DNA from: Escherichia phage 310Ecol104PP
Reading direction: 5' to 3' (one strand)
Sequence record: OR062946.1
DNA length: 64,000 nucleotides
Below are positions 22,025-22,852 of this stretch, piece by piece. The notes beneath the pieces are model-generated. The model worked only from the letters and a program-made list of their open reading frames with translations. It ran no database searches and was not told where the DNA came from. Both the position numbers and the translations under genes were made by a program. Position 1 is the stretch's first letter. Every line of letters starts with the position of its first letter.

Positions 22025-22100
22025 TGGTCGAGACAGAAGGATTCTAACCTTCAACCTACGGATTAGAAGTCCGTTGCTCTATACAATTGAGCTATGCCTC
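22025..22100 (-). tRNA. tRNA-Arg (anticodon TCT)
   Basis: Minus-strand cloverleaf folded by hand; anticodon loop CTTCTAA; acceptor CGAGGCA/TGTCTCG; CCA encoded. Confidence 0.8.
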
Positions 22101-22104
22101 GTAT

Positions 22105-22179
22105 TTGGCGGACGTGATAGGATTCGAACCTATAACCAATCGCTTAACAGGCGATCGCTCTGCCATTGAGCTACACATC
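22105..22179 (-). tRNA. tRNA-Asn (anticodon GTT)
   Basis: Cloverleaf GGATGTG-TA-GCTCAATGGCAGAGC; anticodon loop CTGTTAA; T-loop TTCGAAT; CCA encoded. Confidence 0.8.
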
Positions 22180-22183
22180 CAAA

Positions 22184-22270
22184 TTGGTGGGGAGTGATGG
22201 AGTCGAACCACCCGAGTCGCAATGACAATGGATTTACAGTCCACACCGCTACCTCTACGGGATAACTCCC
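22184..22270 (-). tRNA. tRNA-Tyr (anticodon GTA), long variable arm
   Basis: Acceptor GGGGAGT/ACTCCCC; anticodon loop CTGTAAA; T-arm GGTGG-TTCGACT-CCATC; D-stem imperfect; CCA encoded. Confidence 0.7.
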
Positions 22271-22279
22271 CAAATTAAT

Positions 22280-22354
22280 TTGGTGGCCCTGGGTGGAATT
22301 GAACCACCATCTGGCGATTATGAGTCGCTTGCTTGAACCTTCCAGCTACAGGGC
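22280..22354 (-). tRNA. tRNA with CAT anticodon (Ile2-type or elongator Met)
   Basis: Acceptor GGCCCTG/CAGGGCC; anticodon loop CTCATAA; at the position of T4 tRNA-Ile. Confidence 0.7.
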
Positions 22355-22355
22355 C

Positions 22356-22431
22356 TTGGTGCTGATTGACGGAATCGAACCGCCGACCTTCTCATTACAA
22401 GTGAGTTGCTCTACCTACTGAGCTAAATCAG
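22356..22431 (-). tRNA. tRNA-Thr (anticodon TGT)
   Basis: Acceptor GCTGATT/AATCAGC; D-arm AGCTCAGTAGGTAGAGC; anticodon loop CTTGTAA; CCA encoded. Confidence 0.8.
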
Positions 22432-22436
22432 CAAAA

Positions 22437-22526
22437 CTGGCGGAGGCGATAGGATTTGAACCTATGAGTCGCCGGAGCGACTGCCGGTTTTCAAGACCGG
22501 TGCATTAAACCACTCTGCCACGCCTC
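22437..22526 (-). tRNA. tRNA-Ser (anticodon TGA), long variable arm
   Basis: Acceptor GGAGGCG/CGCCTCC; anticodon stem CCGGT/ACCGG with loop CTTGAAA; CCA encoded. Confidence 0.8.
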
Positions 22527-22528
22527 CA

Positions 22529-22602
22529 GTCTCCATACAAGGATTTGAACCTTGGACCTCCTGATCCCAAATCAGGCGCTCTACCAAACTGAGCTACACG
22601 GA
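22529..22602 (-). tRNA. tRNA-Pro (anticodon TGG)
   Basis: Acceptor CTCCGTG/TATGGAG; anticodon loop TTTGGGA; T-loop TTCAAAT; CCA not encoded. Confidence 0.75.
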
Positions 22603-22612
22603 GTAAATTAAA

Positions 22613-22686
22613 TTGGAGCGGATAATGAGAATCGAACTCACATCATCAGATTGGAAGTCTGAGGTAATACCATTATACGATATCCG
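22613..22686 (-). tRNA. tRNA-Gly (anticodon TCC)
   Basis: Acceptor GCGGATA/TATCCGC; anticodon loop CTTCCAA; CCA encoded. Confidence 0.8.
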
Positions 22687-22691
22687 CAAAT

Positions 22692-22778
22692 TTGGTGCGA
22701 GAAGTGGGACTCGAACCCACAAGGAAATCATTCCGCAGCATTTTAAGTGCTGTGCCTTTACCAATTTGACCATTCTCG
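22692..22778 (-). tRNA. tRNA-Leu (anticodon TAA), long variable arm
   Basis: Acceptor GCGAGAA; anticodon stem CAGCA/TGCTG with loop CTTAAAA; T-loop TTCGAGT; CCA encoded. Confidence 0.8.
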
Positions 22779-22779
22779 C

Positions 22780-22852
22780 GCTGGGAATAAAGGACTCGAA
22801 CCTTTGCATCCTGGAATCAAAATCCAGTGCCTTACCAACTTGGCTAATTCCC
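22780..22852 (-). tRNA. tRNA-Gln (anticodon TTG)
   Basis: Acceptor TGGGAAT/ATTCCCA; anticodon stem CTGGA/TCCAG with loop TTTTGAT; CCA not encoded. Confidence 0.75.

Follow-up and report, generated by a model that had tools for sequence, protein, structure and literature searches.

The tRNA gene cluster of Escherichia phage 310Ecol104PP is a T4-type/T2-type mosaic of a form common in Tequatrovirus

The tRNA genes of Escherichia phage 310Ecol104PP form a cluster in which a T4-type left half (Gln-Leu-Gly-Pro-Ser-Thr) adjoins a T2-type right half (CAT(Ile2)-Tyr-Asn-Arg-ORF116). The sequence analyzed, hereafter the window, is a 64-kb stretch of record OR062946.1 and is that of a Tequatrovirus (T4-like phage); the cluster spans 22025-22853 on its minus strand. 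The cluster is very probably the tRNA operon of Tequatrovirus in a common, already described form, with roles both in codon supply and against defense nucleases. Its arrangement, with tRNA-Tyr and tRNA-Asn at the location of the homing-endonuclease gene segB in T4, is ordinary and was already known, from T2 in 2008 and from hundreds of sequenced T4-like phages. The cassette that makes up the right half, the tRNAs in it, and how it relates to segB were published in 2008 (PMC2330249), and the anti-defense role of tRNA-Tyr was published for T6 in 2026 (PMC13096335). The value of this cluster lies in a correction of perspective and in annotation, and little in discovery.

ARAGORN calls ten tRNA genes and no more in the window; every one is on the minus strand within 22025-22853, and given that no tRNA is called elsewhere, the cluster is far beyond chance. 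An earlier note, made from the letters alone, had described ten contiguous tRNA genes, and ARAGORN and Rfam both call ten. Its gene order and anticodons are identical to those from ARAGORN, which in transcription order are Gln(ttg), Leu(taa), Gly(tcc), Pro(tgg), Ser(tga), Thr(tgt), CAT, Tyr(gta), Asn(gtt), and Arg(tct). Its start coordinate stands and its end, 22852, falls 1 nt short. The genes for Tyr and Asn, which it had singled out as extra relative to T4, are both called on the minus strand, and comparison with T4 agrees. Spacers between genes measure 0-10 nt. For membership in Rfam family RF00005, we used the gathering threshold of 29 bits and a full-length match to the model. All ten genes score above the threshold in cmscan, nine of them at 59-74 bits (E 1e-11 to 1e-16) and the tenth, tRNA-Tyr, at 30.2 bits. 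Eight genes encode the CCA end, and the tRNAs from the remaining two, Gln and Pro, would need CCA added. Four other Rfam families matched in the cluster, Plastid-ycf2 5'UTR, sX4, YrlA, and Plastid-psbI-rps4, are far below gathering and were rejected as tRNA-like sequence or antisense; a match to TeloSII ncR30 is also far below gathering and was likewise rejected. The ten genes are:

22780..22853, minus strand: tRNA-Gln(UUG), called by ARAGORN; Rfam 67.4 bits; no encoded CCA
22693..22779, minus strand: tRNA-Leu(UAA), class II; Rfam 59.3 bits; CCA encoded; 100% identical to T4
22614..22687, minus strand: tRNA-Gly(UCC); Rfam 65.8 bits; CCA encoded; 100% identical to T4
22529..22603, minus strand: tRNA-Pro(UGG); Rfam 66.8 bits; no encoded CCA; identical to T4 over the annotated gene
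22438..22527, minus strand: tRNA-Ser(UGA), class II; Rfam 62.6 bits; CCA encoded
22357..22432, minus strand: tRNA-Thr(UGU); Rfam 72.9 bits; 96% identical to T4
22281..22355, minus strand: CAT-anticodon tRNA, assigned to the Ile2 (lysidine) type; Rfam 59.9 bits; CCA encoded; first gene of the cassette
22185..22271, minus strand: tRNA-Tyr(GUA), class II; Rfam 30.2 bits; CCA encoded
22106..22180, minus strand: tRNA-Asn(GUU); Rfam 74.1 bits; CCA encoded; 75/75 identical to T2
22025..22101, minus strand: tRNA-Arg(UCU); Rfam 71.1 bits; CCA encoded

As judged from sequence comparison, the mosaic has clear boundaries. Genes Gln through Thr are orthologues of those of T4 (88-100% per gene), and this side with its flanks is 97.8% identical to T4 over 1565 bp. 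The T4 operon (eight tRNAs, segB, rnaC, and rnaD; NC_000866) also shares its position with that of the window, as well as trna.2-4 upstream and rnaD/rnaC downstream. Homology to T4 ends at 22336 and resumes at 21656, leaving one segment between:

21657..22335, minus strand: T2-type cassette without T4 homology, comprising most of the CAT gene, Tyr, Asn, Arg, and ORF116

The cassette occupies the place of T4 72013-71169, which holds the 3' part of tRNA-Ile, segB, and T4's own tRNA-Arg. Thus, where the window has CAT-Tyr-Asn-Arg-ORF116, T4 has other alleles of tRNA-Ile(CAT) and tRNA-Arg, with segB. In contrast, the match to T2 is unbroken over 22355-21312 at 93.6% identity. The earlier note had matched the first seven genes and Arg to the T4 set, which holds for anticodons. 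By sequence, only Gln through Thr are orthologous, and the CAT and Arg genes, at 63% and ≤68% to any T4 tRNA, show no more than background tRNA similarity. Nor does T4 have a spacer where Tyr and Asn sit, as had been supposed; it has segB, a gene of 666 bp.

We found no match to T4 SegB by tblastn in the 64-kb window, and the genes from CAT to Arg are contiguous. The site is polymorphic: T4 carries tRNA-Ile/segB/tRNA-Arg there, and the right half is best described as its segB-free allele. Such a segB-free cassette was described in phage T2L (Brok-Volchanskaya et al. 2008, NAR; PMC2330249). Among phage records, 383 have the cassette and 126 have segB, so the eight-tRNA set of T4 is the minority state. 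Describing Tyr and Asn as lying beyond a canonical eight is therefore misleading, since their cassette is ∼3 times commoner than the T4 arrangement: the canonical eight represent a segB-converted minority, and the window represents the commoner, segB-free state. A chimeric assembly from two phages infecting together is an unlikely source of the mosaic because the same mosaic is present in many independent genomes.

Relatives differ in how closely they resemble the window. Phages vB_EcoM_G4498, Shfl2, PhiZZ6, and Nami, all Tequatrovirus with ten annotated tRNAs, have identical gene order and content and are 97-98% identical in DNA over 1.6 kb, with point differences only; G4498 has the same T4-left/T2-right mosaic. 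Other relatives have a tRNA-His between Asn and Arg, for a total of eleven tRNAs (e.g., wV7), or an endonuclease gene. T2L/T2 (MH751506; PMC2330249) shares with the window the lack of segB, the order CAT-Tyr-Asn-Arg, the same 116-aa ORF, and rnaD/rnaC; its CAT and Asn genes are 100% identical and its Tyr gene is identical at 86/87 positions. Unlike the window, T2 has nine tRNAs, lacks tRNA-Thr, and has ORF trna.1 between Ser and the CAT gene, whereas the window has Thr as in T4, no ORF at that location, and another Arg allele (62/74). Differences within genes are also evident. The 3' end of Ser is CCA in the window and T2, whereas in T4 TAA follows the discriminator base; likewise, the CAT/Ile gene encodes CCA in the window and not in T4. 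In Thr, positions 27 and 43 form a C-G pair in T4 but are mismatched (A27/A43) in the window. In Gln, the anticodon arm (CTGGA TTTTGAT TCCAG) is unlike those of T4, T2, and T6 at 9 of 17 positions, with the rest of the gene identical. This variant arm is found in 2 IMG/VR contigs but matches 311 GenBank phage records at 100%, and is a common dimorphism rather than a rarity.

The segB-free state carries a ready-made target for SegB. In T2L, the preferred cut site of this homing endonuclease is inside tRNA-Asn (PMC2330249), and the corresponding stretch in the window is:

22104..22130, minus strand: predicted preferred SegB site, 27 bp, GGTTCGAATCCTATCACGTCCGCCAAA, a sequence match in tRNA-Asn

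It departs from the site in Ser at five positions, G6, A16, G18, A26, and A27, precisely those published (PMC2330249), and T2 has the same bases at all five. At these discriminating positions, the window's tRNA-Asn matches the preferred SegB site of T2L exactly. Should a segB-positive phage infect the same cell, the T2-type half would be cut and replaced, as expected from the presence of the preferred site in its tRNA-Asn. Recent capture of tRNA-Asn from a host chromosome was considered and rejected; its best chromosomal matches are partial, at 77-79%, and to tRNA-Thr and tRNA-Lys. Also rejected was an Asn-to-Met anticodon switch in Mosigvirus, suggested by the annotation under an 83% match, as the gene there is a T4-type CAT tRNA.

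The label of T2-type is inexact for tRNA-Arg, whose gene, as read from its bases, is not the T2 allele. It is a third allele, identical at 62/74 positions to T2 and about 65% identical to T4, and is of the type in RB32 and G4498, with A56 and U19: the T-loop is TTAGAAT, and its A56 pairs with U19 of the D-loop. Klebsiella phage Roth16 has an allele 90% identical to this one that retains G19/C56, and in SHFML-11 the A56/U19 allele is located 3 nt downstream of segB. Replacement of the near-universal C56 by A56 would destroy GGTTC, the core of the motif recognized by SegB (GGTTCRANTCC), and the change of G19 to U19 would restore the tertiary elbow pair. We tentatively raise the idea, itself unlikely, that this allele may be a version of the gene refractory to homing endonucleases. 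If true, a DNA endonuclease has, through pressure on the Arg gene, reshaped a conserved tertiary contact of a tRNA.

The CAT-anticodon gene, only 63% identical to tRNA-Ile of T4, is identical at 75/75 positions to a T2 gene labeled Met, and both ARAGORN and most GenBank records use the same label. Its body is nonetheless that of a noninitiator, Ile2-type tRNA. All sampled homologues in E. coli are annotated as tRNA-Ile (79-82% over the full length), and a Vequintavirus homologue, 96% identical, is typed tRNA-Ile2-CAT. The acceptor stem, GGCCCUG/CAGGGCC, has a paired G1-C72 as well as C4-G69 and C5-G68, which we take to be determinants for TilS; the anticodon stem-loop is close to that of host ileX; and the T2 record remarks "CAU anticodon probably modified". 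Demand for ATA, a codon used 2.5 times more by the phage, likewise goes against an elongator tRNA-Met, and we consider that identity very unlikely. The annotation of the gene should read Ile2.

The odd architecture of tRNA-Tyr, with the acceptor and D stems joined by a 4-nt connector (UAUC), accompanies a poor score on RF00005 (30.2 bits, E 7e-4). The score is this low because cmscan aligned the gene 2 nt out of register. Taken alone, the score could indicate a pseudogene in decay that travels with the cassette, as could a subthreshold match to tRNA-Sec, the annotation of a Felix-O1-like homologue as "Pseudo", and a thermodynamic fold no better than that of shuffled sequences (z = -0.9). The earlier note had named a pseudogene-like score as evidence against its reading, and on the generic model tRNA-Tyr nearly has one; covariation overturns it. 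Across ten phage homologues from several genera and families, 99.2% of cells in the cloverleaf are paired, with compensatory changes at 13 of the 24 pairs; 0/500 shuffles are as good, and slid registers are 42-59% paired. A host-like register with a 3-bp D stem was rejected, with 53% of cells paired versus 100% in the 4-bp register. Homologues do not vary in the anticodon loop, T-loop, discriminator, or CCA, and the T6 tRNA-Tyr, 2 nt different, is visible on Northern blots and has biological activity (PMC13096335). Covariation thus supports tRNA-Tyr as a genuine class II tRNA, and the pseudogene reading is effectively refuted. A tRNA-Sec was rejected as well (34.4 bits vs a gathering threshold of 47; the anticodon is GUA). 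Generic tRNA models give too low a score to a widespread lineage of phage tRNA-Tyr, making false calls of pseudogenes possible. Members of the lineage are 77-96% identical in otherwise unrelated phage families and phage-like plasmids, a distribution that points to a portable selective benefit. Their variable arm, GTCATTGCGAC, is common to homologues of T6, Vequintavirus, Certrevirus, Karamvirus, and T5-like phages, and the Felix-O1-like copy is 1 nt off. Chromosomal E. coli tRNA-Tyr has no similarity to the window's gene even at E≤10, and recent capture from the host chromosome was rejected on this basis.

Features that flank the tRNA genes are predicted to belong to the same transcription unit:

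22951..23837, minus strand: ORFs homologous to T4 trna.2, trna.3, and trna.4, upstream and co-oriented
22923..22947, minus strand: candidate middle (MotA-dependent) promoter, with a TGCTTTA box, a 12-nt spacer, and a TATTAT -10 element
21656..22006, minus strand: ORF116, 116 aa, RB69ORF150c-like, phrog_3355; 114/117 translated positions (stop included) identical to T2
21540..21656, minus strand: homologue of T4 rnaD (species 2 stable RNA), 109/118 identical
21395..21533, minus strand: homologue of T4 rnaC (species 1 stable RNA), 137/139 identical
21311..21344, minus strand: intrinsic-terminator-like hairpin of 10 bp, 7 of them G-C, followed by a T run

Neither ORF116 nor the trna.2-4 ORFs match Pfam, and all have only PHROGs of unknown function. 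The candidate promoter is ∼70 nt upstream of tRNA-Gln, and its TGCTTTA box presumably corresponds to the MotA-box consensus. It was not listed by a sigma-70 promoter scan, which itself yielded 9 sites versus 11.2 expected, showing no enrichment. The ten tRNA genes, predicted to be functional, would be transcribed as one minus-strand unit followed by the small ORF, rnaD, and rnaC. The unit probably extends from upstream promoters, including the MotA-type middle promoter before tRNA-Gln, to the terminator at ∼21320, and the hairpin is likely its end. Host enzymes would cut the precursor into individual tRNAs. Expression, processing, and aminoacylation in the window are predicted by extension from experimental literature on T4, T2, and T6 (PMC2330249, PMC13096335).

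The extra tRNAs may serve two roles, both proposed in the earlier note. The first, adaptation to host codon supply, is compatible with codon demand. Relative to an E. coli sample of only 63 CDSs, a third of them for ribosomal proteins, Tyr (1.98-fold) and Asn (1.39-fold) show the highest enrichment of any amino acids in the window's ORFs, and codons read by all ten tRNAs are used 1.3-4.6 times more by the phage (TAT, 2.7; AAT, 2.3; AGA, 4.6; GGA, 3.2; ATA, 2.5). The cluster would top up host tRNAs for an AT-rich phage, at A-ending codons, AUA, AGA, Tyr, and Asn. Supply could be the sole role, with Tyr, Asn, and the other eight tRNAs matched to demand and having no anti-defense function. Cleavage of T6 tRNA-Tyr by Septu, as for the host tRNA, fits this (PMC13096335). 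However, Phe, Asp, and Lys, for which the phage has no tRNA, are enriched 1.28- to 1.34-fold, close to the value for Asn; the Tyr lineage has spread across unrelated families and plasmids; and deletion of the T6 tRNA region makes the phage more sensitive to Septu (PMC13096335). We therefore view supply alone as possible but doubtful.

The second role, replacement of cleaved tRNAs, would sustain translation when host defense nucleases destroy host tRNAs. By analogy with published systems, tRNA-Tyr would act against PtuAB of Septu or retron-Eco7, and tRNA-Asn together with tRNA-Thr(UGU) against AriB of PARIS. Overexpressed T6 tRNA-Tyr rescues T6 from Septu, and host tRNA-Tyr is degraded less when phage tRNA-Tyr is overexpressed (PMC13096335). 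T5 tRNA-Tyr rescues infection from PtuAB of retron-Eco7 (PMC11555353); the T5-like gene aligns with that of the window at about 81%, and the variable arm is almost identical. The T6 gene (Chihara et al. 2026; PMC13096335) is of the same lineage as the window's, identical at 85/87 positions and in the variable arm, but T6 has segB directly after Tyr, no Pro, Ser, or Asn at this location, and a T4-type CAT gene. T6 tRNA-Tyr protects only through dosage, and the adjoining segB drives its amplification (PMC13096335). Because it has no segB, the window lacks this in-cis amplification mechanism.

For tRNA-Asn, the analogy is with PARIS. Its nuclease AriB cuts the host tRNAs Lys(UUU), Thr(UGU), and Asn(GUU) at the motif U36-A-A-U39, and no cut is made once U39 is mutated (PMC12409363). 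The window's tRNA-Asn has G39 and is without the U39 of this motif. Cleavage of tRNA-Asn(GUU) by AriB is compatible with a replacement role, but tRNA-Asn is only a secondary target of PARIS, and T4-like phages lack the tRNA-Lys needed for escape (PMC12409363). Phages of the T5 family follow the same concept of replacing cleaved host tRNAs, with tRNA-Lys, -Thr, and -Asn acting against PARIS (PMC12409363), but they belong to another family and have much larger tRNA sets, whereas the window has no tRNA-Lys.

At the other extreme, Tyr and Asn could be spare or decoy substrates for tRNA-cleaving nucleases with little part in normal translation, as might be argued from the published rescues and suppressed degradation of host tRNA-Tyr, the unusual architecture of tRNA-Tyr and its reported instability (PMC13096335), and the lack of U39 in tRNA-Asn. 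We judge a purely defensive function improbable: no defense system is known to be escaped via this Asn gene, the demand data fit supply equally well, and the cloverleaf, discriminator base, and CCA are conserved as in a tRNA that is charged and used. Supply and defense together remain the preferred reading of the cluster.

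ARAGORN called exactly ten tRNA genes in the whole 64-kb window, all on the minus strand (22025-22853) and separated by intergenic spacers of 0-10 nt. Their order of transcription is Gln(ttg), Leu(taa), Gly(tcc), Pro(tgg), Ser(tga), Thr(tgt), a CAT-anticodon tRNA gene (the CAT gene), Tyr(gta), Asn(gtt), and Arg(tct). This list confirms the ten genes, anticodons, and order that an earlier note had read from the sequence alone; its location of the cluster also held, although its end coordinate (22852) was 1 nt short. All ten pass the gathering score of the Rfam general tRNA model, nine with 59-74 bits and Tyr with 30.2 (threshold 29). 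Eight of the ten encode CCA (absent from Gln and Pro). T4 encodes no CCA in Ser (followed by TAA) or Ile (followed by TAT), whereas the window Ser (22438-22440, minus strand) and CAT (22281-22283, minus strand) genes do, suggesting that the window phage should rely less than T4 on the host for 3′ trimming and addition of CCA. The cluster is flanked by the following features:

Upstream of the tRNA cluster: homologues of trna.4, trna.3, and trna.2
22947-22923: candidate middle promoter, read from sequence (TGCTTTA box, 12-nt spacer, TATTAT), ~70 nt before Gln
Downstream of Arg: ORF116, a 116-aa ORF (phrog_3355)
21656-21540: homologue of the T4 stable RNA rnaD (109/118), downstream of Arg
21533-21395, minus strand: homologue of the T4 stable RNA rnaC (137/139), downstream of Arg
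21344-21321: predicted terminator, a strong hairpin

The candidate promoter fits the T4 middle-promoter (MotA) consensus, and we infer a MotA-type middle promoter ahead of Gln. ORF116 has no Pfam match.

Matches that are T4-like on the left and T2-like on the right indicate that the locus is a mosaic. By BLAST, window 23900-22336 is 97.8% identical to T4, from trna.4 to 20 nt into the CAT gene; T4 homology is absent downstream of 22336 until 21656, from where it continues through rnaD and rnaC (95.7%). Window 22355-21312 matches T2 without a break (93.6%), starting at the first CAT base and ending beyond the terminator. Identity to T4 is 100% for Leu and Gly, 99% for Pro, 97% for Ser, 96% for Thr, and 88% for Gln, in which differences are confined to the anticodon arm, but only 63% between the CAT gene and T4 tRNA-Ile and at most 68% between Arg and any T4 tRNA. 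Identity to T2 is 75/75 for CAT and Asn, 86/87 for Tyr, and 114/117 translated positions, stop included, for ORF116, but only 62/74 for Arg. The locus is thus a T4-type left half, Thr included, and a T2-type right half; they meet near the CAT 5′ end, within which GGCCCTGTAGCT is common to both CAT alleles.

Gene layouts differ among the three classical T-even phages. T4 has Gln-Leu-Gly-Pro-Ser-Thr-Ile, segB (a homing-endonuclease gene), Arg, rnaD, rnaC; T2 has Gln-Leu-Gly-Pro-Ser, an ORF, Met(CAT)-Tyr-Asn-Arg, and a 116-aa ORF; and T6 has Gln-Leu-Gly-Thr-Met(CAT)-Tyr, then segB. Tyr and Asn therefore belong to the T2 layout and are both absent from that of T4, an outcome of the T4/T2/T6 comparison proposed in the earlier note. 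Its statement that the first seven genes and Arg match T4 stands for anticodons but fails for the sequences of CAT and Arg, and what it took for a T4 spacer between subclusters is the position of segB.

The ten-tRNA arrangement is very common and has been described before. The T2L, RB1, and RB3 regions were sequenced by Brok-Volchanskaya et al. (2008; PMC2330249). The region matches Tequatrovirus genomes, best of all vB_EcoM_G4498 (97.9% over 1.6 kb), which is annotated with ten tRNAs of the same content and order; coverage of the region query reaches 80% or more in 270 records. At least 80% of the CAT-Tyr-Asn-Arg segment (334 bp) is covered in 383 phage records versus 126 for T4 segB, so the T4 eight-tRNA set is less common. 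In some relatives, such as wV7, a tRNA-His between Asn and Arg makes eleven tRNAs; the insert is ~190 bp in some Tequatroviruses (1139-1328 of L015, the wV7 sequence). The queuosine family (GUN anticodon) has four tRNAs, among them Tyr, Asn, and His, and colicin E5 cleaves tRNAs of this family.

Variation is also found within the left half. The Gln anticodon arm CTGGA TTTTGAT TCCAG (22811-22827, minus strand) is unlike T4/T2/T6 at 9 of 17 positions, its stem fully compensated, and the gene is otherwise identical to theirs. The window-type arm occurs in 311 records and the alternative version is also common, indicating a dimorphism by replacement of a stretch smaller than a gene. In tRNA-Thr(UGU) (22357-22432, minus strand), the anticodon stem is topped by an A27/A43 mismatch, which G4498, SHFML-11, and wV7 share; T4 and T6 have C27-G43 instead.

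The right half bears on homing by SegB, the segB product. The preferred 27-bp SegB site, with core GGTTCRANTCC, is in T2L tRNA-Asn and is set apart from the weaker Ser site by G6, A16, G18, A26, and A27 (PMC2330249). The window tRNA-Asn has GGTTCGAATCCTATCACGTCCGCCAAA at 22130-22104, which differs from the window Ser site GGTTCAAATCCTATCGCCTCCGCCAGT at exactly these five positions, with the published bases. Together with the lack of an encoded SegB homologue within the 64-kb window, this indicates that the window carries the recipient allele of a homing system. The 3′ end of the rnaC homologue has a tRNA-like T-arm, CCGGGTTCGAATCCCGG, with the SegB core motif GGTTCGAATCC inside, and SegB-type nucleases might cut there too.

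The window Arg allele (22025-22101, minus strand), present in 119 records at 99% identity or more, combines T-loop TTAGAAT (A56) with D-loop AATTGTATA (U19). A56/U19 is also seen in Salmonella phage S16; the remaining aligned alleles, including that of Roth16 (~90% identity), have G19 with C56. In A56/U19 the tertiary elbow pair is altered on both sides, a compensated change. With A56, the SegB motif also loses the C of its GGTTC core, and in Shigella phage SHFML-11 the same allele follows segB at a distance of 3 nt; resistance of the window allele to SegB is a possible reading, of low probability.

The tRNA-Tyr (22185-22271, minus strand) is a real, selected tRNA. A pseudogene-like score, which would have counted against the earlier reading, was examined: in an E-value search Tyr was hidden behind a sub-threshold tRNA-Sec match, its cmscan alignment was 2 nt out of register, and RNAfold gave no convincing cloverleaf (z = -0.9). 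Covariation nevertheless upheld the gene. Homologues from T6, Vequintavirus, Certrevirus, Karamvirus, Jiaodavirus, Felixounavirus, a T5-like phage, Sugarlandvirus, and another Vequintavirinae member were aligned and scored for a cloverleaf with a 7-bp acceptor stem, a canonical 4-bp D-stem (CCGU/GCGG) with 7-nt loop AGAGGUA, and anticodon, variable, and T-stems of 5, 3, and 5 bp. Paired cells amounted to 99.2%, with changes on both sides in 13 of 24 pairs; none of 500 shuffles matched, and slid controls reached 42-59%. A host-like 3-bp D-stem paired in merely 53% of cells. The low generic score reflects the long variable arm and an unusual acceptor-to-D-stem connector of 4 nt (3-5 nt in relatives, usually 2 nt); the connector is probably behind the near-threshold generic scores and the "Pseudo" annotation of a Felix-O1-like homologue. 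The gene is identical at 85/87 positions to that of T6, whose tRNA-Tyr is detected and biologically active (PMC13096335).

The most plausible identity of the CAT gene is a tRNA-Ile2 that decodes AUA, which is 2.5 times more frequent in the phage than in the host sample. Among the matches listed, every full-length E. coli homologue of the gene (79-82%) bears the annotation tRNA-Ile, and a 96% identical gene in Vequintavirus Gotham is typed tRNA-Ile2-CAT. The T2 record remarks "CAU anticodon probably modified," and the acceptor stem includes G1-C72, C4-G69, and C5-G68.

Codon supply and replacement of cleaved tRNAs, both raised in the earlier note, are plausible and mutually compatible roles, given codon enrichment and the defense literature. 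Across 84 heuristic window ORFs (19,025 codons), compared with a small, ribosomal-protein-rich sample of 63 annotated E. coli K-12 CDSs (13,813 codons), Tyr (4.49% vs. 2.27%, 1.98-fold) and Asn (5.66% vs. 4.08%, 1.39-fold) are the two most enriched amino acids, as are their codons TAT (2.7-fold) and AAT (2.3-fold) enriched. Codons of the remaining eight tRNAs are A-ending or rare and enriched 1.3-4.6-fold against this sample. Enrichment of Phe, Asp, and Lys nearly equals that of Asn, yet they have no phage tRNA.

As for defense, Septu cuts tRNA-Tyr within the variable arm (Chihara et al. 2026, PMC13096335). T6 is rescued by over-expression of its tRNA-Tyr and sensitized by deletion of its tRNA region, whereas T4, without tRNA-Tyr, does not escape; T6 tRNA-Tyr is itself cleaved, implying protection through dosage (PMC13096335). 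The Tyr variable arm is shared by the window, T6, and a T5-like phage, and T5 tRNA-Tyr counters retron-Eco7 (PMC11555353). Host targets of PARIS AriB, cut beside a U36-A-A-U39 motif, are Lys(UUU), Thr(UGU), and, to a weaker degree, Asn(GUU), and mutating U39 of tRNA-Lys abolishes cleavage (PMC12409363). The window Asn has U36-A-A-G39; any bearing of G39 on AriB is suggestive only.

The Tyr, CAT, and Asn genes circulate as small modules among unrelated phages. Even at E ≤ 10, phage Tyr shows no detectable resemblance to the chromosomal tRNA-Tyr of E. coli, and no close host relative of Asn was found. Tyr matches 273 places on E. coli plasmids (90-94%; 72-113 kb among the matches listed) and none on chromosomes. 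The one inspected, from E. coli O169:H41 (NZ_CP024264.1, 16053-16603), is phage-like: this replicon of 72 kb carries genes for DNA ligase, PhoH, GrxA, and an integrase as well as an Asn-Tyr-Thr-Ser tRNA cluster. The rV5-like phages, with unrelated genomes, have CAT(Ile2) and Tyr genes ~96% identical to those of the window. In Gotham other tRNAs lie between these genes (306-392 and 877-951 of L006, its sequence here), suggesting that phage families exchange tRNA genes singly. In Enterococcus phage phiSHEF13, a 79% match to Tyr (201-282 of L012, its sequence here) directly follows a GIY-YIG nuclease gene, with a slight overlap; it draws no ARAGORN call and may be a tRNA remnant beside a homing endonuclease. 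For a gene that the Gotham record annotates as a 97-nt tRNA-Lys(TTT), ARAGORN predicts 99 nt (696-794 of L006) and a four-base anticodon (atcc); this gene may contain an intron or be otherwise unusual.
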